DNA from: Spirosomataceae bacterium
GTDB taxonomy: Bacteria; Bacteroidota; Bacteroidia; Cytophagales; Spirosomataceae
Reading direction: 5' to 3'
Length of the DNA stretch: 24,000 nt
Assembly: GCA_965249815.1 (NCBI GenBank)
Contig: CBDFMV010000003.1
Coordinates: 2,574,218 to 2,598,217 of the forward strand
The number at the start of each line of letters is the position of its first letter. Positions within the stretch are counted from its first letter, which is position 1. This document shows positions 5,405-24,000 of the stretch, piece after piece. The notes below the pieces were generated by a model. The model did no database searches. It was not told where the DNA came from and was given only the letters and a program-made list of their open reading frames with translations. The position numbers and the translations under genes are program-made.

Positions 5405-5461
5405 AGAAGGCTGGCGGTAATACGGGGTTTTCGCGGGGTTGAAACCCACCGTGGGGTTCGC

Positions 5462-5656
5462 TTAAATCCCCTGCTCAAACGCAAACCCCTGCTCAAACGC
5501 AAACCGCACCAGTTCCTGGGAATTTCCAATGCCGAGTTTGAGGTAGTTTAATGCTCTGCATTCGCACTGTGTTCTGGTACTTGGCTGGAATTTATCCCCT
5601 GCTGCCAGCGGGCGTAGGCAATAAGTTGGCCCGGAAACACACAGAAACCAGTTCAA
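5462..5656 (-). pseudogene. Remnant of a LuxR/FixJ-type HTH regulator (C-terminal DNA-binding end only)
   Basis: The minus-strand ORF ends '...LRPLAAGDKFQPSTRTQCECRALNYLKLGIGNSQELVRFAFEQGFAFEQGI*'. This resembles the LuxR HTH pattern (S..TV..H..NI..KLG..N..EL...A...G). There is no receiver or upstream domain, and the tail is duplicated by an 18-bp tandem repeat. Confidence 0.35.
5468..5503. repeat. Perfect 18-bp tandem duplication (2 copies) CCCCTGCTCAAACGCAAA
   Basis: Read directly: 5468-5485 and 5486-5503 are identical. On the minus strand this duplicates the peptide FAFEQG at the end of the LuxR-like remnant. Confidence 0.95.
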
Positions 5657-5769
5657 AATTCAAGCCGGGGAGCGCAGAAAAAAACTGAGTGAACGGTCAA
5701 AACCAAATCGCGGCGGGTTTGTAGCTTGCGGCGCAACTTTTGCCCAACCCACCTGTCTCCTCCCCCTTC

Positions 5770-6855
5770 ATGAAATCGTTGCGCAGACGCCAGTTTACTT
5801 TTTTTAGCATCCTCGTTCTTTTTCTGGTGCTTTTTACGGAATCCATGCTGCGGTTCGGTTTAAAAACCGGACTTTATTTCCCGTTCTGGCGGCCCGACCG
5901 CGCGCTGGCGGAGCGCTACTACCGCGATGCCTACCGCCTGCGAGATTCCACCATCACTCTCACCGACGGCTACTTCGACATCCTTATTCTGGGTGGTTCG
6001 GTTGTGGCCGACGAGTGGCACAGCACCGTTGGCCAGCGCCTGCGCGATACGCTCAAGGCCCGCACCGGCAACCCCCGCATCCGGTACTGGAATGTGGCCA
6101 GCCTGGGCCACAGCTCGGGCGACAACCTGGCTAAGTACCGGGCGCTGGAACGGCAACGGTTCGATTTGGTGCTTTACTACGAGGCCATCAACGAAACCCG
6201 CCTCAACAACGTACCACGCACTTTTTTCCGCCCGGATTACACGCACTACACCTGGTACGACGAGGTCCAGCTCGTGGAAAAACACCCCGAACTCCGCGTC
6301 AGCGTCGTGCCGTTTACACTGCATTTGCTTTGGAATCGCCTTCAGGCGCTGGTGGGGGTACGGCGGTACATCCGCGAAAAACCCGACCCCGACGACCAGC
6401 AACACGGGGGCGATTTAAAAACGCCACCTTGCTACCGGCGCAACCTCGACGCCATCCGGCAGTTGGCCCGGCAACGCAACGAACGGCTGCTGCTGGTCAA
6501 TTTTGCGTACTACATTCCCAATGCCTGGCGGGAATCGGGCTTCCGGACGGGTGCTGATTACAGCCCTTGCGGCCTCTCGTCGCCGATGGAAACGTGGGGC
6601 ATGGCGCAACACGTGGAAAGCGGCCTGCTGGCCCACCGCCGGATGATGCACCAACTCGCCGTGGCGCACCCGGAAGTTGGCTACGTGGACATGCAGCCTG
6701 TTTTGCCCAAATCCGGGCGGTACTTCTGCGACATTTGCCACCTGACCGACGACGGCTGTGGCGCGTTTGCCGGGGCGCTGGCGGCGCACATCATCCGGGA
6801 ACGACTGGTGCCGCCCCCGCCTCTGCTGGCGACGGCTTCAACCCGACGACCATGA
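5770..6855 (+). CDS. SGNH/GDSL-like hydrolase family protein with an N-terminal membrane anchor
   Basis: The ORF is open from 5740 (TTG), but ATG at 5770 gives 'MKSLRRRQFTFFSILVLFLVLF', a signal anchor. 'ILILGGSVV' resembles SGNH block I, and 'FCDICHLTDDG' matches the block V DxxH pattern. The assignment is tentative. Confidence 0.5.
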   Translation: MKSLRRRQFTFFSILVLFLVLFTESMLRFGLKTGLYFPFWRPDRALAERYYRDAYRLRDSTITLTDGYFDILILGGSVVADEWHSTVGQRLRDTLKARTGNPRIRYWNVASLGHSSGDNLAKYRALERQRFDLVLYYEAINETRLNNVPRTFFRPDYTHYTWYDEVQLVEKHPELRVSVVPFTLHLLWNRLQALVGVRRYIREKPDPDDQQHGGDLKTPPCYRRNLDAIRQLARQRNERLLLVNFAYYIPNAWRESGFRTGADYSPCGLSSPMETWGMAQHVESGLLAHRRMMHQLAVAHPEVGYVDMQPVLPKSGRYFCDICHLTDDGCGAFAGALAAHIIRERLVPPPPLLATASTRRP

Positions 6856-8127: not shown

Positions 8128-9171
8128 ATGTCAAGACAAAAAACATACTGGTATTTTCAATTGACCGGTTGGACGGCCCTAACCGTCAACGAAATCATCA
8201 ACTACCTGCCCATCACGGGGTTTACGTTTTACATGCTGTTGGAAATGGCCGTCAACATCAGCCTGGGCATTTTACTGACGCACAATTACCGCCGTTTGGC
8301 CAAGCACCTGGGCTGGATCGAGCTGCCATTTATGCAACTGGTGCCGCGCCTGTTGCTGGCCATTCTGGTGATGGCGTCGGTGATGACGGCCGTCAACGTG
8401 CCCCTCGACGCGCAGATTATCGTGTTCGACGACCAGCGCCTGGCTACCCTCAACGCGTTGTTTAGCTGGGGCAAATACCTGCTTGTCTGGACGTTGATCT
8501 ACCACATGTTCCACTACTTCGAGCGGCGCAAGGAAATCGAGGTGGATAAAATCCGCATCGAGTCATCGGCGAAGGAAACCGAGGCGAAAGTGCTGCGGGC
8601 GCAATTGAACCCGCACTTCATGTTCAACGCCCTCAACAGCATCCGGGCGCTGATCCTTGAAGACCCCGACCGCGCCCAGAAAGGCATCACGCAGTTGTCT
8701 AATATCCTGCGGAGTTCGCTGCTCGCCGACCGCCGCCGGACGGTCTCGCTCGGCGAAGAAATGCGCACGGTGGATGACTACCTGGCCCTCGAAAAAATCC
8801 GGTACGAAGATCGCCTCGAAGTCCGCAAAAACATTTACCCCGAAACCCTCGGCCTCCAGGTGCCGCCGATGATGCTGCAAACGCTGGTCGAAAACGCCAT
8901 CAAACACGGCGTGTCGAAGCCGGTGAAAGGCGGGTTTGTGAGCATCGATTCGCAGATCAAAAAAGGCGCGCTGCACGTGTGCATCTCCAACACCGGCGTG
9001 CTCGAAGGCACGGATTCGGGCGGGTTTGGCCTGGAAAACACGGCCCACCGGCTGGAACTGCTCTTCGGTCCGGGGGCGAATTTTCACATTTATCAGGCCT
9101 CCGAAAACGTCGTTTGCGCTGAAGTGCTCATTCCGGTCGAGACGACCGTCGAGGCGGCGCGGGCGGCGTAG
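8128..9171 (+). CDS. LytS/YehU-type sensor histidine kinase (His_kinase PF06580 type plus HATPase_c)
   Basis: 347 aa. The N-terminal half is hydrophobic with multiple TM segments. 'LRAQLNPHFMFNALNSI' is the signature phospho-acceptor motif of LytTR-associated kinases. 'LVENAIKHG' is the N-box and 'GGFGLENT' the G-box. Confidence 0.9.
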   Translation: MSRQKTYWYFQLTGWTALTVNEIINYLPITGFTFYMLLEMAVNISLGILLTHNYRRLAKHLGWIELPFMQLVPRLLLAILVMASVMTAVNVPLDAQIIVFDDQRLATLNALFSWGKYLLVWTLIYHMFHYFERRKEIEVDKIRIESSAKETEAKVLRAQLNPHFMFNALNSIRALILEDPDRAQKGITQLSNILRSSLLADRRRTVSLGEEMRTVDDYLALEKIRYEDRLEVRKNIYPETLGLQVPPMMLQTLVENAIKHGVSKPVKGGFVSIDSQIKKGALHVCISNTGVLEGTDSGGFGLENTAHRLELLFGPGANFHIYQASENVVCAEVLIPVETTVEAARAA

Positions 9172-9184
9172 GGGAGGGTTGTTC

Positions 9185-9214
9185 AACGTTTAAGGGTTGA
9201 CGTTTAACGTTGAA
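9185..9214 (+). promoter_or_regulatory. Candidate LytTR-regulator operator: two 9-bp direct repeats with a 12-bp spacer
   Basis: AACGTTTAA (9185-9193) and AACGTTGAA (9206-9214) are separated by exactly 12 nt. Each matches 8 of 9 positions of the published LytTR consensus [TA][AC][CA]GTTN[AG][TG]. Related copies lie at 9199-9207 (GACGTTTAA) and 9264-9272 (AACGTTAAA). All sit in the 109-nt gap before the LytTR regulator gene. Confidence 0.35.
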
Positions 9215-9280
9215 AGTGCCGAATCCAAACCAGACGTCAAAATACCTTAAACCTTGATCCTCTAACGTTAAACGAAAAAA

Positions 9281-10018
9281 ATGAAAGCCCTCATCGTAGA
9301 CGACGAGCGCCTGGCCCGCAACGAACTGCGGCGGCTGCTCGACAATTTTCCGAAAATCAACATCGTCGGCGAAGCCGCCAACGCCGAAGAAGCCACCGCG
9401 CTCATCGACGAACTGCAACCCGATTTGCTATTTCTTGACATTCAGATGCCCGGCAAAAACGGCTTCGAATTGCTCCAGAGCCTCGAAGGCCACGTGCCCG
9501 AGGTGATTTTCACCACTGCCTACGACGAGTACGCCATCAAGGCGTTTGAGTTTAACGCGCTGGATTATCTACTCAAACCCGTGGAACTCCACCGGCTCAC
9601 CGAGGCCGTGCAGCGGGTGGAAGAAGAACTCCACCACCACGAACAGGAGAAGCGCGGCAAGGAAGAAGGTCACACCAAACTGCTGACTGAGGCCGACCAG
9701 GTGTTCGTGAAAGACGGCGAGAAGTGCTGGTTCGTGAAACTGGGCAAGGTGCGGCTGTTCGAGAGCATGGGCAACTACGTGCGTCTGCATTTCGACGACC
9801 AGAAACCGCTGGTGCTCAAATCGTTGAACGCGCTTGAAGACCGTCTCGACCCGAAAACGTACTTCCGCGCCAACCGCAAGCACATCATCAACCTGAGCTG
9901 GATCGACAAAATCGAACCGTGGTTTTCGGGTGGCCTGCTCGTCACCCTCCGTGGCGGCGACCGCATCGAAATCTCCCGGCGGCAGGCGATTCGGTTTAAG
10001 GAATTGCTGAGTCTTTGA
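9281..10018 (+). CDS. LytR/AlgR-family response regulator (REC plus LytTR DNA-binding domain)
   Basis: 245 aa. The receiver contains 'MKALIVDDE' and 'DLLFLDIQMPGKNGFELL'. The C-terminal LytTR domain contains 'YVRLHF...FRANRKHIINLSWI...L..G..I.ISRR'. Confidence 0.92.
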   Translation: MKALIVDDERLARNELRRLLDNFPKINIVGEAANAEEATALIDELQPDLLFLDIQMPGKNGFELLQSLEGHVPEVIFTTAYDEYAIKAFEFNALDYLLKPVELHRLTEAVQRVEEELHHHEQEKRGKEEGHTKLLTEADQVFVKDGEKCWFVKLGKVRLFESMGNYVRLHFDDQKPLVLKSLNALEDRLDPKTYFRANRKHIINLSWIDKIEPWFSGGLLVTLRGGDRIEISRRQAIRFKELLSL

Positions 10019-12427: not shown

Positions 12428-13528
12428 CTACACGAAGTAGTGAACCGGATTGGTAGGGGTTTCCGACATTTTGACCGCAAAAGTAGTGAATTTTCTGGCC
12501 AATTCGTCACGAAGAAGTTCCTTCGTAAACACTTCGCTTTCGTAATGCCCCACGTCGCAGACGACAAGGTGGTTTTCGGCGTCAAAAAATTCGTGGTACT
12601 TAAAATCGGCGGTTACGAAGGCGTCGGCCTCCTGCCGGAGGGCGTCGCCGAGCAGGAAACTTCCTGCCCCACCACACACGGCCACCCGCTGAACGGGTTT
12701 GCCCCGCAACGACGTATGGCGGATGACGTTCAGGTTCAGCCGGTCTTTCAAAAACCGCAGAAACGCCGTTTCGGGTAGTGGCTCTGGCAACGTACCGATG
12801 GCTCCGGCACCCACGTCCTGGGTTTCGTTTTCGAGTTTTTGGAGGTAAAACGCCACCGTTTCGTACGAACGCGCGGCGTTCAGTGCCGCCACTACCTCCC
12901 GCTCGCACACGGCGGGCAGCAGCACTTCGATGCGGTGTTCGGCCTCTTCGTGGTACTCGCCGATTTCCCCGATAGTCGGGTTCGCGCCTGGTTTGGCTTC
13001 AAACGTTCCCGTGCCTTCCACCCGGAACGAGCAGTTTTTGTACGGACCGATTTCCCCAGCCCCCGCAGCGTAAAGCGCCTCCAGAATCCGGGGTGTTTCG
13101 GCAACGGGCGCAAACGTGACCAGTTTGAGCAGCGTTTCACGCTTCGGAGCCAGGACACGGACGTTTTCCAACCCCAGCTTTTCGGCGATTTTCCAGTTGA
13201 CGCCGCCGCGCACATGATCAAGGTTGGTGTGGCTGGCGTAAATCGCCACGTCGTGTTTGATGGCCCGGATGACGGTCCGCTCCACGTAGTTCTTGCCGTT
13301 CAGCTTTTTCAGGCCCCGGAACACAATCGGGTGATGGGCCACGACGAGGTTGCAACCCTGCGCCACGGCCTCATTGACCACCGCTTCGGTGCAATCGAGC
13401 GTAGTCAGCACGCCGGTCACCTCCGCCTGCGGGTCGCCGACGAGCAGCCCGGCGTTGTCGTACGATTCCTGGTAGGCGAGGGGGGCGAGGGTTTCGAGAA
13501 ACTGGGCTACCTGGCGAATCGTCGTCAT
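12428..13528 (-). CDS. Nif3-like dinuclear metal centre protein (GTP cyclohydrolase 1 type 2 / YbgI homologue)
   Basis: Start taken at ATG 13528 (MTTIRQVAQFLETLAPLAYQESYDNAGLLVGD...), giving 366 aa. 'VVAHHPIVFRGLKKL', 'IYASHTNLD' and 'RVAVCGGAGSFLL' are typical Nif3 motifs. The ATG overlaps the DinB stop as ATGA. The longer track ORF (to 13876) is an Arg/Pro-rich out-of-context extension. Confidence 0.9.
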   Translation of the reverse strand: MTTIRQVAQFLETLAPLAYQESYDNAGLLVGDPQAEVTGVLTTLDCTEAVVNEAVAQGCNLVVAHHPIVFRGLKKLNGKNYVERTVIRAIKHDVAIYASHTNLDHVRGGVNWKIAEKLGLENVRVLAPKRETLLKLVTFAPVAETPRILEALYAAGAGEIGPYKNCSFRVEGTGTFEAKPGANPTIGEIGEYHEEAEHRIEVLLPAVCEREVVAALNAARSYETVAFYLQKLENETQDVGAGAIGTLPEPLPETAFLRFLKDRLNLNVIRHTSLRGKPVQRVAVCGGAGSFLLGDALRQEADAFVTADFKYHEFFDAENHLVVCDVGHYESEVFTKELLRDELARKFTTFAVKMSETPTNPVHYFV

Positions 13529-14049
13529 GCGGGAAGGCCGTAGCGTTCGTGGAGGATGTTGAGGTGGTGCCGTTCGTGCCCGGCGATGAGCCAGGCCAGC
13601 ACCCGCACGCCGATGGGCGACCCGTTGGCCGTGCCGCGCCGCTCCCAGGCGGCTTCGTCGAAACTCGCCACGAGCGCCAGCGTACCGAGGCGGGTCAGTT
13701 CGTACTGACGCAACAAACCGGCGAGCGGCTGGCGGTCGAATTGCGCCGTTTCGGCGTAGGTGTTTTCGTCGAACCCCGGCAGCGATTGCTGCTCGCCCCG
13801 GGCGATGGCCAGCATCCGGTAAGCGAAAATCCGTTCCGTGTCGGTCAGGTGGCCGAGCATTTCTTTCGGCGACCACTTGCCGGGGGCGTAGCAGGTTGTT
13901 TGTTGTTCGTCGGTGAGGTTTCCGAATAGCCCCAGCACCGTCTGCAACTGGTCGGTGAGCAGGTCAGCAACGTTCTGACCGTCAACCGTTTCGAGGTAAC
14001 GGCTAAAAGCAGCGCTCGGCGGGTAGTCGGATGGTGGGGGTTTGTGCAT
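13525..14049 (-). CDS. DinB-family (DinB_2) metal-dependent four-helix-bundle protein
   Basis: 174 aa. 'WSPKEMLGHLTDTERIFAYRM' and 'LIAGHERHHLNIL' supply the conserved His triad pattern of DinB/YfiT-like proteins. Confidence 0.85.
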   Translation of the reverse strand: MHKPPPSDYPPSAAFSRYLETVDGQNVADLLTDQLQTVLGLFGNLTDEQQTTCYAPGKWSPKEMLGHLTDTERIFAYRMLAIARGEQQSLPGFDENTYAETAQFDRQPLAGLLRQYELTRLGTLALVASFDEAAWERRGTANGSPIGVRVLAWLIAGHERHHLNILHERYGLPA

Positions 14050-14144: not shown

Positions 14145-14218
14145 GGTCCGGTAGTTCAGTTGGTTAGAATACCTGCCTGTCACGCAGGGGGTCGCGGGTT
14201 CGAGTCCCGTCCGGACCG
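14145..14218 (+). tRNA. tRNA-Asp (anticodon GTC)
   Basis: Cloverleaf folded by hand. The acceptor stem is GGTCCGG/CCGGACC. The D-arm is GTTC-AGTTGGTTA-GAAT. The anticodon stem CCTGC/GCAGG carries the loop CT-GTC-AC. The T-arm is GCGGG-TTCGAGT-CCCGT, the discriminator is G, and no CCA is encoded. Confidence 0.93.
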
Positions 14219-14227
14219 CTGATAACA

Positions 14228-14272
14228 AAAGTAAGCCCTTGACTTTCAGCGAGTTAAGGGCTTACTTTTTTA
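14228..14272. terminator. Bidirectional rho-independent terminator between tRNA-Asp and the convergent 1259-aa gene
   Basis: The stem pairs AAAGTAAGCCCTT (14228-14240) with AAGGGCTTACTTT (14256-14268), leaving a 15-nt loop. It is followed by a TTTTT run on the plus strand and by TTGTTAT on the minus strand. Confidence 0.7.
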
Positions 14273-14336: not shown

Positions 14337-17300
14337 TCAATCATCTTGTGCGAATTGCCGCCGCCGTTCAGCGTCAGCATACTTTTCATAGCGCCCGATA
14401 ATCTGTTCCAGGTGTTGAATGTGCCCCAGGTAAGGTAAATGCGTTGGCATTCGCCGGACTTGTGCCACCACCTGTTTTAACTGGTCAGCCCTCATTTGGT
14501 CGAAGTTGAAATCCGCTCCACCCCCTCCCCCGTGAGGTGCCCAGTCAATCATTTTAAACTCGCTCAACGAACGGTTGATAGATAGGAACTCTCGAATGCA
14601 GAAGGACCATTCTTTCTCTAAACCAACCTCTAAAAGGGCTTGGGTCAAACTTTCGATTTCTTTGGGTTCCCTGTGATACTCCTGTACAAAGGCTCGCAGA
14701 AAAGCGATTACCGTTTCTTTCGAGTTTGGTAGCACCTGCTGAAAAAATGATTTGTATCTTCCATGAAGAAAATCATAGCGAGATTTGCTTTTCATCAGCT
14801 TAATAACCTTCATCGCCCAGCCAATAGAATCTTCTAATTGCCAAATAAAACCCAAGTTGTCGATTTCCGGATGGCTAATGTGGTCAGACTGGCGCTCGTA
14901 GTGTGCTTCCACGAATTCAAGTAGGAATCCTGGGTCTAACGTTAACAAAGCCTGTAGATTTCGTCGGTCGAAGTCGTAATGTCCGGTACGAGTGTGTCCA
15001 AACTGGAGAATATATGCCTTTTTTAGCAAAGGCAAATCCGCGATGGGGTCAAAGCGACTGATGCTTTCGCTAAAAAAATCGTATTCCAGATTGTACCAGA
15101 TTCCCTTTGTCTCGTATCGCTTAGTCAAAGCAGTTAAAACGTCGCGGTATAACGTAGGACGGTGAGGAAGGTACTTGTTCCAAATTTGGTCCCTAAAGTA
15201 CAATCCTTGCAGGGTGGATTGTTCATAAAACAGTATCAGTTGCTCCGCATAAAACGGTGTGATTACTTCAGGAGCGAGCAGGCCCCAAAAAGCCAGTTTC
15301 CATTCTTCCCTGTGGAAAGCAGCACCGGAGAATATTTGGTGCCACCGTTCAACTTTGCAGTCTATCTGTCCGAATATTTGGTGGATGACGTATGGAATAC
15401 CAAAATGCAGCGGCCAGTCATATTGGGAAAACAGAATTATGGTGCGTTCAAACAAGGTCTTGTCTGGGCCATCCGCTACCCCTCTCAAAATTGCTACAAG
15501 TTGTTTATCGAAGGATTCGCCTTCGCACGCTTTGTAACTGTATAACGCCATCACTGCGTTGAAAAACTCGTCAATGGCACCTTCACTGCTGAGATCAAGG
15601 TTTTCGAGAAGTTCTGATTGCTTTTTCCGCTTGTACTCCTCCTCATTCGTCCAAATTTCGTCACCGGCATTTTGGCCACGGATACGGTTCCATTGCATTA
15701 GGAGATAGAAATCGTATTGCTGATTGTGAAAGTGATTCGTCAGGGCCTCCATCTCATCCGAATATATGCCTTTCCACTCCAATAATCGAACGTACTCATG
15801 GGCAAAGTGGCAATCTTCAAAATCATTAGGAGAGAAGTATTCATAGATTAATGGAATTAGGCGTTCCATGTCAAACTGCCGGTACTCCTTATCTTCTCCC
15901 CGATGGAAGGTTTTCAAATATGCGTAAATCACTTGCCGTAATTCCTGAGGATAAGCGGGAAGTTGCCCGCGCACAAATTGCCAGAGGCTTTCTCGGAACG
16001 ACAGGAAGGGTTCACGATAAGGCAACGGAAGGCGAGTAAAGGTCACTAACCGACCTTTTGATGAATTTGACTCAAACTCAATTCGCAAAAATGAGGGAAC
16101 CAGTGCCACTACCAGCCGCCTCGCTTCGGAGTTGCCTGTAGAAGCCTGGTTAATTAGAAAATCAAAATACGCCGCTTGCCTGAGTTCCGGGTACGGCGTG
16201 TCGTCAGGACGAAACGAGAGGCGGTCATTAACTTTTTTGACAATCTCTTCCGAAGACTTGGGGTTCTGTTTAGCTATTAGCAATAGGAGTTCAAGGGCAG
16301 TTTCAAAATGCTCGTTGACTCCCTCTAAGAAGTGGAATAATAAGGTCAATCTCTTCTCAAGCGCTGTATTGCCGGTTATGCCATGCCAAGGATTCTCTTC
16401 CCAGACGGCCTGTAAATCAGGAAGTAGATAGGCAAACTGATGTAGATAGGCGAGTGTCTCAGTTGGCAAGGCGAAGTAGAAGATTTCAAGAAACGCGAAA
16501 GCCTTCTCATCATCTTCGCGCACCGAGTGGAAGTATTGGTGAGTTACCTCCCGGATATCAGCGATGGTTCGTTGCTGGTCGAGGACGTTCAATACACCGT
16601 AGAATGCGTCGCGGATGCGGTGAGGATATTCTTCAAAAAAGTTCGTTAGGAGCGTTTCTACACTTAAGAACTTTCTTTCGATGAAGGCCAGGAACACCGC
16701 ATAAGTAGCTAAGTTTTGGTCCGATATCTTGAACAAGCTCTGGTCGTTCATGTACACATCCGCCAGCTCATCTTTTTCCAAGGCTGACAGCTCAGCAGCG
16801 AATGTGTCCCGACTCAGGCCAAAAGCCTGACTGAGTTGTTTGCAGAAAGATTCATCGAGAAGGTCAATTTGCCGAAAAACGGCCAGCAGGCCCAATACTT
16901 TCAATCGCGTTGGGTCACTAAGCAAATGGTTATCTTCCGCGTCGGTCAGGTTGTCGTAGTAGGTTACGAACAAATCGGTGGCATCGTTCAGGGCCAAAAT
17001 ATTCTGTTCTTTTTTAGCGAGGCGGGCAGCCATGATAGCCAAGCGCGGATTCCCATTAGCTAAAAACCCAATTCGCTGCTGAAAAAGGGGATTCCGAATT
17101 CCAAAAGGTTCTGCACTGATTAATTGATTAATCTGCTCATCAGTGAACTTCTCCAAGAAATAGGAATCCGATTGATACGTCTTCAAGTGCCTTTGCACCA
17201 CGTTTAACGCGTAATCCCGAACGGTTAGGATGACCTTGAAATGGACATCCCGTTTCGCGTACAGGTATTCCAGCGTCTGAACCAGAATAGGTGTCTGCCG

Positions 17301-18116
17301 ATTGGCGTCGTCTATAAGAAAGAGGTATTTCTGCCCTGGGCGTACTAAATCGCCGAGGTCTTCAAGGAGGGGAGCGAATTTGTTGGTAATGCAAATAGGA
17401 GTGTAGCCTTCATTCTGCTTACAGAATTCACGGAGTGCCTCCAGAGCCAGCTTTGTTTTGCCAACGCCCGGTGCCCCCGACAAAATCGCAATGGTGTGCT
17501 GGTTGAGAAGGCTCAGGAATGAGGCTAAATCGTCTGAGCGGTGAAGGAAAGGGTTTGACAAAGGGTTGTTTTCGCCAATGGACTTGCGTTCCTGAGCGGC
17601 AATAAATTCGTCCGGTGTAAGCAGTTGCAGTGTCTCACCAGGAAGTCCGAGGTACCGACGGGCAAGTTGGGGGAAATCGTTGTGGATTGCCAGGGCCAAA
17701 CTGTCCAGGTTAATGAGTTCCAATCGGATGGTTCGTGGGCAAGCCTGCCGAAGCGCTTGGTCTTCTTCAGTAGTCAGCCTGCCAGCGAATGCCAGGGTGA
17801 TGCGGTCAATCTGCTGCGGTTGCAGACCTGTTTTGGCTTCGTCCAAGCACTTTGCCAAATCGTCATGCAGTTTTCCCGCGAGAGACCTCTGCTGTTTCGT
17901 GTACTCAATCAGTACGTATTGTCCACTTGGTAGGACTACATAGGTGTCAGGCGTACCCTTCACCGTTTGCATCTTCCCTGCTTGAGTACCTGTCCGGGTG
18001 ATTTGCCGGAACTCGGCCCCGTACTGGCAGAACAGGTATTCATCGCATAGGCGTTGAAAGGTAGCGGAGTCAACTCGTAAGAGTGCTCCCTCGATTTCGG
18101 TCAGGCGCTGGTTCAT
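14337..18116 (-). CDS. Large P-loop NTPase (AAA+/STAND-like) with a nuclease-like N-terminal domain and a long helical C-terminal region; candidate single-gene antiphage protein
   Basis: 1259-aa uninterrupted ORF in the AT-richer island. Walker A 'GAPGVGKT' is at aa 214-221 (nt 17454-17477) and Walker B 'YLFLIDDANR' at aa 264-273. 'VILTVRDY' is sensor-1-like and 'NGNPRLAIMAARLA' sensor-2/Arg-like. The N-terminal roughly 160 aa carry 'GTPD(57)TYVV...YVLIE(71)YTK(74)', reminiscent of Mrr/PD-(D/E)xK nucleases. About 850 C-terminal residues show no enzymatic motif I recognise. The CDS call is secure; the function is inference. Confidence 0.85.
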   Translation of the reverse strand: MNQRLTEIEGALLRVDSATFQRLCDEYLFCQYGAEFRQITRTGTQAGKMQTVKGTPDTYVVLPSGQYVLIEYTKQQRSLAGKLHDDLAKCLDEAKTGLQPQQIDRITLAFAGRLTTEEDQALRQACPRTIRLELINLDSLALAIHNDFPQLARRYLGLPGETLQLLTPDEFIAAQERKSIGENNPLSNPFLHRSDDLASFLSLLNQHTIAILSGAPGVGKTKLALEALREFCKQNEGYTPICITNKFAPLLEDLGDLVRPGQKYLFLIDDANRQTPILVQTLEYLYAKRDVHFKVILTVRDYALNVVQRHLKTYQSDSYFLEKFTDEQINQLISAEPFGIRNPLFQQRIGFLANGNPRLAIMAARLAKKEQNILALNDATDLFVTYYDNLTDAEDNHLLSDPTRLKVLGLLAVFRQIDLLDESFCKQLSQAFGLSRDTFAAELSALEKDELADVYMNDQSLFKISDQNLATYAVFLAFIERKFLSVETLLTNFFEEYPHRIRDAFYGVLNVLDQQRTIADIREVTHQYFHSVREDDEKAFAFLEIFYFALPTETLAYLHQFAYLLPDLQAVWEENPWHGITGNTALEKRLTLLFHFLEGVNEHFETALELLLLIAKQNPKSSEEIVKKVNDRLSFRPDDTPYPELRQAAYFDFLINQASTGNSEARRLVVALVPSFLRIEFESNSSKGRLVTFTRLPLPYREPFLSFRESLWQFVRGQLPAYPQELRQVIYAYLKTFHRGEDKEYRQFDMERLIPLIYEYFSPNDFEDCHFAHEYVRLLEWKGIYSDEMEALTNHFHNQQYDFYLLMQWNRIRGQNAGDEIWTNEEEYKRKKQSELLENLDLSSEGAIDEFFNAVMALYSYKACEGESFDKQLVAILRGVADGPDKTLFERTIILFSQYDWPLHFGIPYVIHQIFGQIDCKVERWHQIFSGAAFHREEWKLAFWGLLAPEVITPFYAEQLILFYEQSTLQGLYFRDQIWNKYLPHRPTLYRDVLTALTKRYETKGIWYNLEYDFFSESISRFDPIADLPLLKKAYILQFGHTRTGHYDFDRRNLQALLTLDPGFLLEFVEAHYERQSDHISHPEIDNLGFIWQLEDSIGWAMKVIKLMKSKSRYDFLHGRYKSFFQQVLPNSKETVIAFLRAFVQEYHREPKEIESLTQALLEVGLEKEWSFCIREFLSINRSLSEFKMIDWAPHGGGGGADFNFDQMRADQLKQVVAQVRRMPTHLPYLGHIQHLEQIIGRYEKYADAERRRQFAQDD

Positions 18117-18169
18117 TATAATAAATGGATGTTTTCCGAGTAAACGCTTGAAATTTTTGTGAGTTCCAT

Positions 18170-18199
18170 TTTGATATAACTTTTTTTACTATACATTTG
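18170..18199 (+). promoter_or_regulatory. Candidate Bacteroidetes-type promoter for the hsdS'-hsdM-...-CBASS gene string, possibly giving a leaderless transcript
   Basis: TTTG (18170-18173), an 18-nt spacer, then TACATTTG (18192-18199, matching TAnnTTTG). The motif ends 4 nt before the ATG at 18204, so the predicted start site falls at or near the start codon. It sits in an 87-nt AT-rich divergent intergenic region. Confidence 0.3.
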
Positions 18200-18203
18200 T
18201 GCC

Positions 18204-18797
18204 ATGATTCAACCTCTGGCCACCCTTGCCCGTATTCAATTAGGGACTACCCAACTCAGGGACGAAGGGGAAGGTGGAGTGCCGTTGGTGCAGGTGGGGG
18301 CCTTTGACAAGTACGGACGCATAATTCCAGACAACCCACGTCCGTTCAGCACGACTACCGCTGATATTCCTCAACGTGCCTGGGTTAAACCAGGGGATGT
18401 GCTATTGGCCGGAAAAGGAAGTCGGAACACCGCAGTCTATTACCGTCATGAGTACCCAGTTGCTGTAGCCTCTGCCGCATTTTTTATTCTACGGGTCATT
18501 GAGCCTGCCCTTTTGTTACCCGAGTTTCTTGCTTGTTACCTGAACCAGCCTGAACCTCAAGCACAAATGAAAAACCTTGTCAGTTCGTCGATTACCGTTC
18601 CAACCCTCAATAAAAGAGACCTGCTTGACCTACGAATTCCATTACCTCCTTTAGTTGTTCAGCGCCGCTTAGTGAATTTCTATAATGCGTTTCTTGAAAT
18701 CCACGACCTGAACCAGCACTTAACTAATCAATACGAGAAACTCCTCCATCAATGCTTTTTCCAGACTATCAGCCCGGATCTCAACAACCCGGAATAG
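18204..18797 (+). CDS. hsdS: Half-size Type I restriction-modification specificity subunit (single TRD HsdS)
   Basis: 197 aa with one target-recognition domain followed by the canonical junction 'LRIPLPPLVVQRRLVNFYN' (PLPPL.EQ-type motif) and a coiled C-terminal helix. It is about half the length of the full HsdS downstream. Confidence 0.7.
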   Translation: MIQPLATLARIQLGTTQLRDEGEGGVPLVQVGAFDKYGRIIPDNPRPFSTTTADIPQRAWVKPGDVLLAGKGSRNTAVYYRHEYPVAVASAAFFILRVIEPALLLPEFLACYLNQPEPQAQMKNLVSSSITVPTLNKRDLLDLRIPLPPLVVQRRLVNFYNAFLEIHDLNQHLTNQYEKLLHQCFFQTISPDLNNPE

Positions 18798-18838
18798 CTA
18801 ACACGGATCCATCTAATTCAGGCCTATCCAGTTCGGGT

Positions 18839-20383
18839 ATGAAACTGATTTCAGCCGCCGCCATCAACGGGGCCGTCTGGCGGGCCTGTGACACGTTTCG
18901 GGGTGTCATCGACCCCACGCAGTACAAGGACTACATCCTGACGTTCCTGTTCCTAAAGTATCTGTCGGACCTCTGGAAAGACCGATTCCAGTTTTACCTG
19001 AGCCGGTACAACGAAACTTTCGATAATTGCCCCCGTACGCAGCGTGCAATGGAACAGTTTGAGCGGTTCCGGTTGCCAGAGGAGTCTCGCTACGAGTACC
19101 TCTACGACCAGCGCAACGCCACTGACATCGGCGAGAAAGTAGACATTGCCCTCGAACACCTCGAAGAGTCTAACCGCACTAAACTGGAAGGAGTGTTTGG
19201 CGACATCAGCTTCAATTCAGAAAAACAACTTGGGCCTACCCGCGACCGAAACCGTCGAATCAAAAACCTCATCGAGGATTTCAAAAATATTGACCTGACT
19301 CCCTCGCATCTGGAAAGTAACGACGTCATCGGCGACGTCTACGAATTCCTCATTGAACGTTTCGCTTCTGATGCGGGCAAAAAAGCCGGTGAATTCTATA
19401 CACCTTCGGCGATTTCTACGCTACTGGCACGTCTGATGACTCCGCAGCCGGGTAGCCGTATTGCCGACCCTACTTGTGGTTCTGGTTCATTACTTATTAA
19501 AGTAGGCCAGCAGGTAGGTTCGCGGAACTTCGCTCTCTACGGGCAGGAAATCAACCGCAGTACCTACGCGCTGGCCCGAATGAACATGTTTCTCCACGGC
19601 TTTGACGACGCCATCATACGCTGGGGGGATACACTTAATAACCCGCTGCTGCTCGAAAACGACCGGCTCATGAAGTTCGACGTGGTGGTAGCCAATCCGC
19701 CGTTTTCGCTCGATAAGTGGGGAGCCGAAGATGCCGCAAAGGACCGCTACGGGCGATTTCATCGCGGTACTCCACCCAAATCGAAAGGTGATTTTGCGTT
19801 CATTTCCCACATGATTGAGACCACCTATGAGGGCAAAGGGCAGGTAGGCGTCATCGTACCTCATGGTGTCTTGTTCCGGGGCAGTACGGAAGGCTTGATT
19901 CGCCGGAAATTGATTGAAGAGAATCTGCTCGAAGCCGTCATTGGCTTACCCGCGAACTTGTTTTTCGGTACGGGCATACCCACAGCCATTCTGCTTTTCA
20001 ACCGTTCTCGTACGGGAAGTGCCAATACGGATGTGCTTTTCGTGGATGCCAGTCGTGATTACGCTGATGGCAAAAACCAAAGTGCGTTACGCCCCGAGCA
20101 CATCAATCGTATTGTCGATACGGTACAAACATTCCGTCAGACACCTGATGGTCCGGCGGGTTTGGTGGCCGATAAATATGCGTATCGTGTTACGCTGGAT
20201 GAAATCCGCGAGAACGATTACAACCTCAATATTCCACGCTATGTGGATACTTTCGAGGAGGAGGAACCCATTGACATTCGGGCTACTCAAGCTGAAATTA
20301 CCCAGTTAGAGGCACAGTTGGTTAATGCCAAAGCGCAAATGCAGCGGTACTTACAGGAGTTGGGATTTCAAGATGCTGACTAA
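18839..20383 (+). CDS. hsdM: Type I restriction-modification N6-adenine DNA methyltransferase subunit M
   Basis: Start taken at ATG 18839 (MKLISAAAINGAVWRACDTFRG...), giving 514 aa. The HsdM_N-like region has 'YKDYILTFLFLKYLSD'. The SAM motif I is 'ADPTCGSGSLL' and the catalytic motif IV is 'VVANPPFS'. The track ORF from 18752 is a 5' extension. Confidence 0.93.
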   Translation: MKLISAAAINGAVWRACDTFRGVIDPTQYKDYILTFLFLKYLSDLWKDRFQFYLSRYNETFDNCPRTQRAMEQFERFRLPEESRYEYLYDQRNATDIGEKVDIALEHLEESNRTKLEGVFGDISFNSEKQLGPTRDRNRRIKNLIEDFKNIDLTPSHLESNDVIGDVYEFLIERFASDAGKKAGEFYTPSAISTLLARLMTPQPGSRIADPTCGSGSLLIKVGQQVGSRNFALYGQEINRSTYALARMNMFLHGFDDAIIRWGDTLNNPLLLENDRLMKFDVVVANPPFSLDKWGAEDAAKDRYGRFHRGTPPKSKGDFAFISHMIETTYEGKGQVGVIVPHGVLFRGSTEGLIRRKLIEENLLEAVIGLPANLFFGTGIPTAILLFNRSRTGSANTDVLFVDASRDYADGKNQSALRPEHINRIVDTVQTFRQTPDGPAGLVADKYAYRVTLDEIRENDYNLNIPRYVDTFEEEEPIDIRATQAEITQLEAQLVNAKAQMQRYLQELGFQDAD

Positions 20384-20434
20384 GTTGCTCAACAAACCTT
20401 AAAATGCGGTTTCACAAGACTTTAATACTGGCCA

Positions 20435-21466
20435 ATGGCTGAGTTGTCTGACCAATTTACGGAAGTCGTCAACCTGATTCAGCAAGCCCGTGGCCGCGCT
20501 GTACAGCGGGTCAACAGCGAATTGATTGACCTGTACTGGAACGTTGGTGCCTACATCAGCCGCAAGGTGACCGCCAGCGAATGGGGTGACGGAACCGTGA
20601 ATCAACTGGCCGACTTCATCCGGCAGCACCATGCGGAGTTGCGGGGTTTCAATCGAAGGGGGTTGTACCGCATGAAGCAGTTTTACGAAACCTACCATCC
20701 GGTTCATGAGAATGTGTCGGCACTGCTGACACAAATTAGCTGGACCAATCACCTGGCTATTCTATCGCAGTGCAAGACCAGCGAAGAACGGCAATATTAC
20801 CTGCTTCGGAGTGCCCAAGAGCGATACAGTTCCCGGGAACTCGAACGCCAGATTGACAGTGGTCTGTTTGAGCGCACGGTGCTGGCCACCGCCCAACGGC
20901 CAGATACCGTTCGGCAACTGCCGCAGCAAACATCGGATGTGTTTCGGGATAGCTACGTATTTGAGTTTCTGGATTTGCCCGAACGTCACGATGAAACCGA
21001 CTTACAACGGGCCCTGATTCTCAACCTAAGTAAGTTTCTGTTGGAAACTGGTAGGCAGTTTACGCTTGCGGGCGAGAACGTGCGAATTCAGGTAGGCAAT
21101 CAGGATTTTTACATTGACCTGCTGCTGTACCACCGGACCTTGCAATGCTTAGTGGCTGTCGAGCTGAAAGTGACGAAGTTCAAACCCGAACACCTCGGGC
21201 AGTTGAATTTTTACCTCGAAGCACTCGACCGCGACCACCGATTGCCCCACGAAAACCCAAGCATTGGCCTGCTGCTCTGCACGAGTAAAGATAGCCAAGT
21301 TGTGGAATACGCCCTAAGTCGGAGCCTTTCGCCGACGTTGGTGGCCGATTACAGCCGTCAACTAATCGACAAACACCTGCTGGAAGCCAAAATAGCCGAA
21401 CTCTATCACCAAGCTCAACAAATAGCTGATGGCACCCTAACTCCTACAACGACTGATGGAAACTGA
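20435..21466 (+). CDS. DUF1016 / YhcG-family PD-(D/E)xK nuclease-domain protein embedded in the Type I RM operon
   Basis: 343 aa. The N-terminal 'VNSELIDLYWNVGAYI' and 'SWTNHLAIL' are typical of DUF1016. The C-terminal nuclease core is 'DFYIDLLLYHRTLQCLVAVELKVTKFKPEHLGQLNFYL' (D...ELK). The stop overlaps the hsdS start by 11 nt. Confidence 0.85.
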   Translation: MAELSDQFTEVVNLIQQARGRAVQRVNSELIDLYWNVGAYISRKVTASEWGDGTVNQLADFIRQHHAELRGFNRRGLYRMKQFYETYHPVHENVSALLTQISWTNHLAILSQCKTSEERQYYLLRSAQERYSSRELERQIDSGLFERTVLATAQRPDTVRQLPQQTSDVFRDSYVFEFLDLPERHDETDLQRALILNLSKFLLETGRQFTLAGENVRIQVGNQDFYIDLLLYHRTLQCLVAVELKVTKFKPEHLGQLNFYLEALDRDHRLPHENPSIGLLLCTSKDSQVVEYALSRSLSPTLVADYSRQLIDKHLLEAKIAELYHQAQQIADGTLTPTTTDGN

Positions 21467-22673
21467 ACTGATACCGTTAGCAACCAAAAACATTGCTCAC
21501 CAGCTACCAGACGGATGGGAATTGAGTAGATTAGGAATGCTGGTAAAATTCGTGAATGGCTATGCTTTTAAACCAGAAGATTGGAAAACGACGGGTTTGC
21601 CAATTATTCGCATTCAAAACCTGAATGACGCCAACGCCAGCTATAATTACTATGATGCTAAAGTTCCAGAACGATACTATGTACGTAAAGGTGATTTACT
21701 ATTCGCATGGTCAGGTACGAAAGGAGTCTCTTTTGGAGCAAGAGTTTGGAAAGGTGAATTAGCAATTCTGAACCAACATATTTTTCGGGTTATACCAACC
21801 AAAATTGACTCAGATTATTGCTATTACCTTCTCAGAGGGGCACAAGAAGCGGTTGAAAAAAATGCACATGGTTTCAAATCGACATTCGTACATGTTACGA
21901 AAGGCGAATTAGAGAAAGTTAAAGTTACCATTCCCCCCTTTGCCGAGCAGCGCAAAATCGTCGGCATTCTCGCCACCTGGGATGAAGCCATCCAAACCGC
22001 CCGGAACCTACTGACGGTAAAGCAAAAACGCAAATGGGGATTGATGCAACAATTGCTTACAGGGCAAGTTCGTCTTTCGGGGTTCTCAGAAGCATGGCGA
22101 GAGGTGAAAATTCGTAACGTAGCTCATGAAGTAAGCAAGCGTAACAAAGCAGACAAAGCGCTTAAGGTGCTTTCATGCACAAAATACAACGGATTAGTAG
22201 ACTCACTGGAATACTTCGGTAGAAAAATTTACAGCGATGACCTCAGCACATACAAAATTGCTCCAAAGAATTGCTTTGCATACGCAACTAACCATATCGA
22301 AGAAGGATCAATAGGGTACCAATCTAAGTACGATGAAGCATTAATCAGCCCTATGTACACAGTCTTTAGGACAGATAAGACCGTTGACGATGCATTTCTA
22401 TACTCCGTATTGAAAAGTGAGCGGTACGTCCAGATATACCAAAAAAACATGACGGGTTCAATCGATCGGCGCGGAGGCCTTCGTTGGGAAGAATTTTCCA
22501 ACATCAAGCTCAGCCTTCCTAACCTCGTAGAGCAACAGGCCATAGCCTCAATGCTCATCGCCGCCGATGAGGAAATCAGGTTGGCAAGCGCCGAAGTTGA
22601 TGCCCTAAGTCGGCAGAAGCGGGGATTGATGCAACAGTTGCTAACGGGGCAGGTGCGCGTAAACGCAGATTAA
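21456..22673 (+). CDS. hsdS: Full-length Type I restriction-modification specificity subunit S (two TRDs)
   Basis: 405 aa with two TRDs. Each is followed by a conserved junction, 'IPPFAEQRKIVGIL...KWGLMQQLLTGQVRL' and 'LPNLVEQQAIASML...KRGLMQQLLTGQVRV'. Confidence 0.92.
   Translation: METELIPLATKNIAHQLPDGWELSRLGMLVKFVNGYAFKPEDWKTTGLPIIRIQNLNDANASYNYYDAKVPERYYVRKGDLLFAWSGTKGVSFGARVWKGELAILNQHIFRVIPTKIDSDYCYYLLRGAQEAVEKNAHGFKSTFVHVTKGELEKVKVTIPPFAEQRKIVGILATWDEAIQTARNLLTVKQKRKWGLMQQLLTGQVRLSGFSEAWREVKIRNVAHEVSKRNKADKALKVLSCTKYNGLVDSLEYFGRKIYSDDLSTYKIAPKNCFAYATNHIEEGSIGYQSKYDEALISPMYTVFRTDKTVDDAFLYSVLKSERYVQIYQKNMTGSIDRRGGLRWEEFSNIKLSLPNLVEQQAIASMLIAADEEIRLASAEVDALSRQKRGLMQQLLTGQVRVNAD
22036..22657 (+). 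repeat. Intragenic direct repeat of the hsdS conserved region (two 37-nt copies 585 nt apart)
   Basis: GGGGATTGATGCAACAATTGCTTACAGGGCAAGTTCG (22036-22072) compared with GGGGATTGATGCAACAGTTGCTAACGGGGCAGGTGCG (22621-22657). The first 16 nt are identical and there are 5 mismatches overall. Both encode GLMQQLLTGQVR. Confidence 0.9.
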
Positions 22674-22685
22674 CAATACAACAAG

Positions 22686-23792
22686 ATGAAAAACGGCGAC
22701 GAACCACAGTCCTTTCGAATCCTGTCCATTGACGGCGGAGGCATCCGGGGAATCATTCCCGCCCGTTTTCTCTGTGATCTTGAAAGTGATGTCAGTCACG
22801 ACAAAGGAGAGGCTGTCCGTTTGTGTGACTACTTCGACTTGATTTGCGGTACGTCAACGGGTGGAATTATTGCAATTGGGTTGGCACTGGGTATGTCAGC
22901 GGCTGAAGTGTTGAATCTGTACAAGAATAACGCGAGTACCATCTTCGGACAGTCGTCTTGGTGGCTTGGGTTTTCTAAAAACGTTCGACGCCTGGCTTAT
23001 CCTAAACATTCCAGTTTAGGGTTGACGACGGTATTAAAAGCAGAGTTCGCCCGGTTTTCAGAAAATGGAGATACACGGATTGGTCACGCACGAACCAGAT
23101 TGGCTATTCCTGCTTTTCTGGCATCAGAAGGTAAGCCACGGGTATTCAAAACTTCGCACGACATGGAGTTGAAGCGCGATTACCAAATACCAGCCTACCA
23201 AGTAGCACTGTCAACCAGCGCGGCTCCTACTTACTTTTCGGCCCATACTTTTGAGTATGAAGACAATCGGACGAAGAGCAACAACAAGCTCACCAATTTA
23301 ATAGATGGTGGCGTATTTGCGAATAACCCAGCATTGATAGGCATATCTGAAGCACTGGCGCTGGGCTTTCCCGTCAGCAGCATCAAGCTCTTGTCATTAG
23401 GGACGGGTTCAGAATCCTTCAAAGAACCGCATCCAAAAAACCGATTTTATAACTTGAAGCCAGCTTGGGGAGTCAGCTATTGGCTTAACCCTTTTGCCGG
23501 GGCACCTCTCATCGAAATGATGATGCAAGCCAATTCTGAAAGTATAGACAATACCGTTAAAATTCTTAGTCGGGGATTAGGACGAGCCGAACGAAGTGTT
23601 TTCCAGTACGACCGAGTGCAAGTTCGGTTCGAGTCGAAAAAAGAACGGGTGGGTTTGGATTCGAGTCGGAAGAAAGAATTGGAGTTTCTCGAAGCGAAGG
23701 GAAAACACCTCTACGATTTACACGGAGGTCCGCTTACCCGTAGTTACTTCGACCAAAAAATTACGCCTTATACACCTTCATTCTCACTTTAA
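22686..23792 (+). CDS. capV: Patatin-like phospholipase, CapV-like CBASS effector
   Basis: 368 aa. The oxyanion motif is 'DGGGIRG', the nucleophile elbow 'GTSTGG' (GxSxG) and the catalytic Asp motif 'DGGVFANNP'. It lies directly upstream (11-nt gap) of a CD-NTase-like gene, the same capV-then-cyclase order as in Vibrio cholerae. Confidence 0.8.
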   Translation: MKNGDEPQSFRILSIDGGGIRGIIPARFLCDLESDVSHDKGEAVRLCDYFDLICGTSTGGIIAIGLALGMSAAEVLNLYKNNASTIFGQSSWWLGFSKNVRRLAYPKHSSLGLTTVLKAEFARFSENGDTRIGHARTRLAIPAFLASEGKPRVFKTSHDMELKRDYQIPAYQVALSTSAAPTYFSAHTFEYEDNRTKSNNKLTNLIDGGVFANNPALIGISEALALGFPVSSIKLLSLGTGSESFKEPHPKNRFYNLKPAWGVSYWLNPFAGAPLIEMMMQANSESIDNTVKILSRGLGRAERSVFQYDRVQVRFESKKERVGLDSSRKKELEFLEAKGKHLYDLHGGPLTRSYFDQKITPYTPSFSL

Positions 23793-23803
23793 AAGAACAC
23801 AAG

Positions 23804-24000
23804 ATGGCCAATTGTCACTCTCTCTTCATCACCTTCAACGACGATGAACTGAAGCTTACCGGTACGAAAGAAACGCGAATGCGAACCTCCCGCGAGGACT
23901 TACGGAAACGTATTCGTAAGCACTTTGCCGAAAAGCACCCTGAATACAAACCTAAATTTTACATTCAAGGGTCTTACAAAATGCGGACAGTAATCCGCAC
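23804..24000 (+). CDS. cGAS/DncV-like nucleotidyltransferase (CD-NTase), 5' partial (runs off the window)
   Basis: My translation gives MANCHSLFITFNDDELKLTGTKETRMRTSREDLRKRIRKHFAEKHPEYKPKFYIQGSYKMRTVIR. The layout is 'F..F...I.L', then 'R..LR.RI..HF', then 'P.F.IQGSY...T.IR'. It parallels the CD-NTase N-terminus and its Gly-Ser motif (DncV 'WTQGSFQYDTLNRP'). The catalytic DxD would lie just beyond position 24000. Confidence 0.6.
   Translation, partial: MANCHSLFITFNDDELKLTGTKETRMRTSREDLRKRIRKHFAEKHPEYKPKFYIQGSYKMRTVIR

Follow-up and report, generated by a model that had tools for sequence, protein, structure and literature searches.

The subject of this analysis is a string of six plus-strand genes within positions 18204-24000 of a 24-kb stretch of DNA from a Spirosomataceae bacterium (the window, by which we mean the whole 24-kb stretch), where genes of a Type I restriction-modification (R-M) system run directly into the beginning of a cyclic-oligonucleotide-based antiphage signaling system (CBASS). 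Coordinates were taken from the listing of open reading frames (ORFs), and gene identities were assigned using Pfam, PADLOC and NCBIfam profiles. The string, together with the region ahead of it, is laid out as follows.

18117-18203, between divergent genes: AT-rich intergenic region of 87 nt, the presumed promoter of the string
18204-18797, plus strand: half-hsdS, 197 aa, with a single target recognition domain (TRD); Pfam Methylase_S
18839-20383, plus strand: hsdM; Pfam HsdM_N (E 4.3e-26) and N6_Mtase (E 7.5e-101), with DPTCGSG and NPPF motifs
20435-21466, plus strand: DUF1016 gene, in the slot between hsdM and hsdS; Pfam DUF1016_N and YhcG PDDEXK; PADLOC PDC-S02 (E 6e-124)
21456-22673, plus strand: full-length hsdS with two TRDs; Pfam Methylase_S in two stretches; PADLOC full-length match over 16-403
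22674-22685, plus strand: hsdS-capV junction of 12 nt, CAATACAACAAG, too small for a promoter or a terminator
22686-23792, plus strand: capV, the patatin gene; Pfam Patatin, with GGGIRG, GTSTG and DGG motifs; PADLOC CBASS effector (E 9e-91)
23804-24000, plus strand: CD-NTase gene (cdn1; SMODS/CD-NTase), the first 65 codons of a 341-aa gene that is cut by the window end

All six genes, cassette and host Type I genes alike, share one orientation, and the spacings along the string are 41, 51, -11, 12 and 11 nt, with capV lying 11 nt 5' of the cyclase gene. A first, sequence-only reading of this DNA had listed the same six genes, coordinates and gaps, all of which turned out to be exact when set against the ORF list and the three profile collections; its remark that no terminator-like hairpin separates hsdS from the patatin gene also holds, since a 12-nt spacer cannot accommodate one. 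The same is true of its statement that the window contains no HsdR-like ORF: in tblastn searches of all frames of the window with three HsdR proteins, the best match had an E value of 0.44.

The full-length hsdS carries conserved LMQQLLTGQVR repeats in its central and C-terminal parts, along with an internal 37-nt direct repeat (D1), and the PADLOC Specificity_I models align with half-hsdS over one half only. The start of hsdM at 18839 coincides with the aligned start of its orthologue in a Persicitalea relative (L001, described below), an upstream ATG at 18752 being likewise open. CapV matches the NCBIfam CBASS_lipase model at 255 bits (cut-off 200) and is predicted to be a patatin-like, cGAMP-activated phospholipase effector, and the N-terminus of the CD-NTase that falls within the window matches Pfam SMODS and the PADLOC cyclase model (E 1e-23).

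Homologue searches brought up four proteins that are all encoded on one contig of 4,276,696 bp. P0001 is the window CapV, at 100% identity. P0263 is a 341-aa CD-NTase whose residues 1-65 are identical to the translation of 23804-24000; it scores 218 bits against the NCBIfam cGAS model (cut-off 150) and has GS, DMD and HID active-site motifs. P0251, of 293 aa, is a second CD-NTase, orthologous to the gene that we call cdn2 in the relatives below. P0124 is an intact HsdR of 1071 aa, with five HsdR Pfam domains, a TIGR00348 score of 450 bits (cut-off 285), an N-terminal nuclease motif, and GSGKS and DEAH motifs; it is 79% identical to the HsdR of the closest relative of the locus (L003). Because this intact HsdR shares its contig with the window proteins, the source genome encodes a complete Type I enzyme.

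Loci that carry the cassette or the Type I operon in other genomes extend the gene order past the point where the window stops.

L003, the closest relative (CapV 69%, hsdM 86% identity): STAND gene on the minus strand, then half-hsdS, hsdM, DUF1016, hsdS, capV, cdn1, E2, cdn2, hsdR, ygjP
L001, a Persicitalea metagenome-assembled genome (CapV 63%, hsdM 62.5%): the order of L003, but lacking DUF1016 and having a DUF3800 gene ahead of hsdR
L006, close to L001: cassette between hsdS and hsdR; hsdM broken by an insertion sequence
L008/L009, chosen via hsdR alone (62%): half-hsdS, hsdM, HNH-SAVED effector, 403-aa cyclase, E2, hsdS, unrelated DUF3800, 294-aa cdn2-type cyclase, hsdR, ygjP

The cassette is thus kept between hsdS and hsdR in three relatives (L003, L001 and L006), and hsdR lies downstream in these as well as in L008, whose hsdM is 73% identical to that of the window. 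The junction between hsdS and capV measures -4 nt in L003, 3 nt in L001 and 9 nt in L006; in L003 the gaps along the string do not exceed 24 nt, and only 3 nt separate cdn2 from hsdR. Three independent relatives, at CapV identities of 61-69%, preserve both the order and the close spacing of the genes, and the arrangement therefore goes beyond chance. As one of two options, the sequence-only reading had envisaged an hsdR beyond the CBASS genes, in the manner of a prrC insertion. This option is supported by hsdR downstream of the cassette in the three relatives and by the intact HsdR on the source contig; the hsdS-capV adjacency, for which it had suggested a survey of homologous loci, recurs in L003, L001 and L006. 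Elsewhere, a metagenome scan with a CapV alignment returned one 1.6-kb fragment, scans of viral contigs gave no CapV match and only HsdM relatives of at most 45% identity, and a tblastn of plasmids with HsdM gave matches that were all below 60% identity and in other phyla.

In the relatives the cassette has the order capV, cdn1, E2, cdn2. A stand-alone E2-like gene is found in eight of eight related cassettes, its position in the window cassette falling past the window end; the E2-like proteins are ~145-165 aa long and belong to PF26395, those of L001 and L004, which had no Pfam match, being assigned by BLAST to E2s with a precomputed PF26395 hit. The product of cdn1 is ~341 aa long and ends in a C-terminal tail of ~50 aa, that of cdn2 is 288-294 aa long and tail-less, and the catalytic GS/DxD/D residues are kept in both. 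Judging from these gene contents, the four-gene unit is predicted to be a CBASS of the E2 type (type II-short) that is self-sufficient and uses a patatin effector. In every cassette, two CD-NTases with 36-40% mutual identity flank one E2 (L003 11132-13474; L001 4567-6917; P0263 and P0251 in the window genome), and phrase searches of the literature found no description of a two-cyclase CBASS layout.

The same capV-cdn1-E2-cdn2 cassette occurs free of hsd genes in four of the eight cases (L004, L005, L007 and L037), two of which are on plasmids (Fibrella plasmid CP155474 for L004 and Runella slithyformis pRUNSL02 for L037). Groups of similar CapV proteins mix the two contexts: the embedded copy of L003 and the free copy of L004 are 83% identical, and the CapV of L006, which is embedded, is closest to that of the free cassette L005 (77%). 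Between L001 and L006, which also differ by the DUF3800 insertion or deletion, DNA identity amounts to 81-91% over cdn1-E2-cdn2 and 75-85% over hsdR, as against 51-69% over the capV body (L001 3614-4493). This divergence between conserved flanks leads us to conclude that capV was replaced by recombination inside the embedded locus. On sequence comparison, then, the cassette is autonomous and mosaic, and apparently mobile between contexts.

All four free cassettes adjoin the same divergent pair, consisting of a small ORF and an XRE/MqsA-SocA (Panacea-type) protein (L004 8527-9878; L005 8516-9867; L007 6382-7775; L037 6213-7765), and have an intergenic region containing conserved blocks in common. 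This pair may be a dedicated regulator or a toxin-antitoxin partner that was lost from the embedded cassettes.

We interpret 18204-24000 as the upstream portion of a composite Type I R-M operon of ~11-12 kb in which a CBASS is nested between hsdS and hsdR, and assign to this interpretation a probability of about 0.72. The full layout would be half-hsdS, hsdM, (DUF1016), hsdS, (capV, CD-NTase-1, E2, CD-NTase-2), hsdR and a gene for a ygjP-like peptidase, with nested genes in parentheses. The Type I enzyme, as M2S1 methylase and R2M2S1 nuclease, would provide a first-line barrier to unmethylated DNA, and the CBASS an independent second layer behind it, in which infection would cause the cyclases to make a cyclic nucleotide and CapV to degrade the membrane (abortive infection). 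The cassette would most likely be transcribed by read-through from a promoter ahead of half-hsdS, continuing at least in L003 into hsdR.

Read-through into the cassette is predicted because, in the embedded form, the start codon of capV is precisely where the cassette begins, and the region that precedes its free counterparts is absent. AT-rich stretches of 71-173 nt lie ahead of the latter, those of L004, L005 and L007 sharing conserved blocks, and no counterpart of this region was found within 600 nt 5' of the embedded capV genes. The divergent intergenic region 18117-18203 contains a Bacteroidota-type -7 box, TACATTTG, at 18192-18199; a TAnnTTTG box is located at -12 of the half-hsdS start both in the window (18192) and in L003 (5525), and the next one on the plus strand is at 23246 in the window and at 16150 in L003. 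Shared transcription of the hsd string and the CBASS is therefore plausible on the arrangement of these elements.

Several observations weigh against the composite operon or its expression as one unit. TAnnTTTG occurs in the whole window at chance frequency (10 compared to 9.6 expected), so that it is the conserved position that speaks for the box, and the strict form of the box was not found in the free cassettes. Scans for sigma-70 promoters and terminators gave chance-level counts in the window (13 terminator-like sites compared to 12.4 expected), L003 and L008, and are powerless either way. A promoter within the 3' coding region of hsdS is a possible alternative to read-through, and in L001 and L006, where 240-320 nt lie ahead of hsdR, this gene may have a promoter of its own. 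Moreover, it is from synteny and from co-occurrence on the 4.28-Mb contig that we infer hsdR to follow the cassette directly.

A short GC hairpin followed by a T-run is located 60 nt into capV, at 22746-22761 in the window and 10058-10073 in L003. The conserved RGIIPARF residues are encoded at this very place, so the hairpin is probably driven by coding rather than being an attenuator.

Among the other explanations, the one that survives best is a PrrC-like guard, in which the CBASS is wired to the Type I enzyme, for example by being held off by R-M, by sensing its failure or inhibition, or by sensing the DNA products generated by HsdR. Their adjacency would in that case stem from a partnership in mechanism and not from mere co-residence. 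PrrC does sit in the same slot, CBASS genes are present in five of five loci sampled from this Type I family, including L008/L009, for which hsdR was the sole criterion of choice, and a cdn2-type gene stands beside hsdR or one gene away from it in L001, L003, L006 and L008. However, the sampling was unbiased with respect to CBASS for just one locus, and PrrC guards occur nearly always inside Type I R-M loci, whereas half of the cassettes are free of hsd genes, next to the XRE/MqsA-SocA pair and in two instances on plasmids. The mixing of embedded and free copies within CapV groups, and the swap of capV inside an embedded locus whose neighbours remained unchanged, likewise argue against such wiring, which we consider unlikely. 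The sequence-only reading had proposed that R-M and CBASS form a functional unit; what stands of this is shared inheritance and, probably, shared transcription, whereas a common mechanism or obligate interdependence is argued against by the four stand-alone cassettes and by the exchange of capV between contexts.

A further idea is that the Cytophagales Type I lineage (half-hsdS, hsdM, hsdS, hsdR, ygjP) is a dedicated partner of E2-type CBASS and not a passive landing pad. It arises because all sampled loci carry CBASS genes and because the tail-less cdn2-type cyclase stays by hsdR even with a complete CBASS in the other slot. We regard it as improbable; if it were true, it would suggest cross-talk, for instance by way of a cyclase that monitors whether restriction is active or inhibited.

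Doubtful, too, is a remote hsdR, encoded elsewhere in the genome, which would make this a split Type I module with the CBASS merely its next neighbour in a defence island. Systems are often juxtaposed in such islands, and P0124 is tied to the window by its co-occurrence on the 4.28-Mb contig; yet the L003 HsdR, encoded 3 nt from cdn2, has P0124 as its nearest known relative (79%), this identity tracks that of hsdM (86%), the cdn2 orthologue is on the same contig, and the order hsdS, cassette, hsdR recurs in three relatives. Finally, a methylation-only M+S module (an orphan methyltransferase) that shares its transcript with an abortive-infection system, which the sequence-only reading had offered in view of the lack of hsdR within the 24-kb window, is highly improbable given the intact, full-length HsdR orthologue on the same contig and the presence of hsdR in all relatives, and the apparent orphan is an artefact of a window that ends too early.

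A CBASS nested in the slot between hsdS and hsdR, as we favour here, fits the known embedding pattern represented by PrrC, DarTG2 and TgvAB, of which it is a good but ordinary example. The PrrC anticodon nuclease lies in this very slot in E. coli EcoprrI (prrA-hsdM, prrB-hsdS, prrC, prrD-hsdR). PrrC, however, is a single gene, almost exclusively embedded and physically masked by R-M, whereas the cassette is a four-gene signaling system that is free as often as embedded, and no evidence for its masking by R-M was found in this analysis. In the Type I island of enteropathogenic E. coli, an autonomous multi-gene defence, DarTG2, occupies the same slot. A single promoter under RptR control drives the whole of that island, and its authors regard the slot as a likely recombination hotspot. 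That island begins with the repressor gene rptR, in contrast to the half-size hsdS that comes first here, with no regulator gene seen; the cargo here is a CBASS and the host belongs to the Cytophagales. TgvAB type IV restriction is embedded in the Type I R-M cluster of Vibrio cholerae VPI-2 (PMC11411939), and the 'guilt-by-embedding' survey of Payne et al. 2024 (bioRxiv 10.1101/2024.01.29.577857) found that 96.7% of embedded defence genes share the orientation of their host, proposing co-transfer, co-regulation and layered or back-up defence as benefits. The window DUF1016 gene matches a candidate of that survey, PDC-S02 (PADLOC), and, compared to TgvAB and the surveyed cases, two slots are occupied at once. 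Of the traits of embedded systems, the window has the host hsdS flank, the common orientation and free copies elsewhere; the hsdR flank is present in L001, L003 and L006 and predicted for the window. CBASS is not named in the accessible portions of the survey's text and supplements, and our literature search found no text that names CBASS inside a Type I operon.

As for the cassette itself, the CapV-DncV CBASS of Vibrio cholerae includes Cap2 (E1/E2) and Cap3 (JAB). It resembles the present type in having a patatin effector directly 5' of a cGAS/DncV-like cyclase, both of which pass NCBIfam equivalog cut-offs here, but the cassette described above has E2 only, plus a second cyclase. E2-only CBASS have been characterised, for instance CdnG-E2 of Serratia marcescens (PMC12948482), with which the cassette shares a CD-NTase followed by a stand-alone E2-like protein, the ~50-aa tail of cdn1 being of the kind that E2 ligates. 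It departs from CdnG-E2 in its second, tail-less CD-NTase after E2 and in its CapV effector.

These results add CBASS to the documented cargo of the hsdS-hsdR slot. They also provide a natural matched set of one CBASS cassette in two settings, lacking a promoter within a Type I operon and, where free, having an upstream region of its own. With it one could ask whether embedding makes a difference to how layered defences are expressed or regulated, or to their phage range. Two filled slots and recombinational turnover illustrate how, in Bacteroidota, Type I operons serve as scaffolds on which defence genes are exchanged; such loci have been little studied in this phylum.

The cargo differs between strains, and we therefore recognise two variable slots in the host operon, one between hsdM and hsdS and the other between hsdS and hsdR. 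The former holds DUF1016 in the window and in L003, nothing in L001 and a CBASS in L008. The two DUF1016 genes (window 20435-21466, L003 7669-8727) are only 32% identical at the protein level compared to 86% for the flanking hsdM, which suggests allele replacement or very fast divergence. In L008, the CBASS in the hsdM-hsdS slot (3745-6630) is a different one, and an orphan cdn2-type cyclase gene (9056-9940) lies 60 nt 5' of hsdR.

Besides the full hsdS, a half-hsdS 5' of hsdM is present in all four loci with a readable 5' end (the window, L001, L003 and L008), its position being kept at identities of 33-49%. The half-size HsdS may supply the enzyme with a second, palindromic specificity. Shuffling or phase variation between hsdS and half-hsdS was considered and rejected: the two genes share a strand, long inverted repeats are absent, and no recombinase is present.

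Upstream of the string, the following features mark the setting of the locus.

14145-14219, plus strand: tRNA-Asp(GTC), identified by ARAGORN; left boundary of a low-GC island
14227-14269, no strand assigned: hairpin of 19 bp with A-run and T-run flanks (repeat I3, 18-nt arms, 94% complementary)
14337-18116, minus strand: STAND NTPase gene, 1259 aa; Pfam nSTAND3 (E 6.1e-10); divergent from the hsd string

The GC content drops from ~0.62 to ~0.46 exactly at tRNA-Asp, and for this reason we regard the DNA from 14.3 kb to the window end as horizontally acquired; the STAND NTPase together with this boundary identify it as a low-GC defence island beside the tRNA gene, a point that the sequence-only reading had missed. 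No integrase is visible in the window, although the island adjoins a tRNA. The hairpin at 14227-14269 is likely a bidirectional terminator for the tRNA and the convergent STAND gene. The 1259-aa protein is a candidate Avs-like defence protein, to judge from its domain match. Its counterpart in L003 (1664-5445, minus strand) has the same position and comprises one ORF of 198 aa (70% identity) and another of 1052 aa (50%). The 1259-aa ORF, the only other large one, was also considered as an overlooked divergent hsdR; this was rejected in view of its nSTAND3 NTPase domain and because HsdR queries had no match there in tblastn. Its N-terminal 200 aa have no Pfam match, and a possible PD...ExK-like motif can be made out by eye.

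Further upstream, at 12428-13876 on the minus strand, the longest ORF of a NIF3-like housekeeping gene starts with GTG and has an implausible Arg/Pro/Ala-rich extension of ~115 aa; the true start is probably an internal Met (MTTIRQ...).

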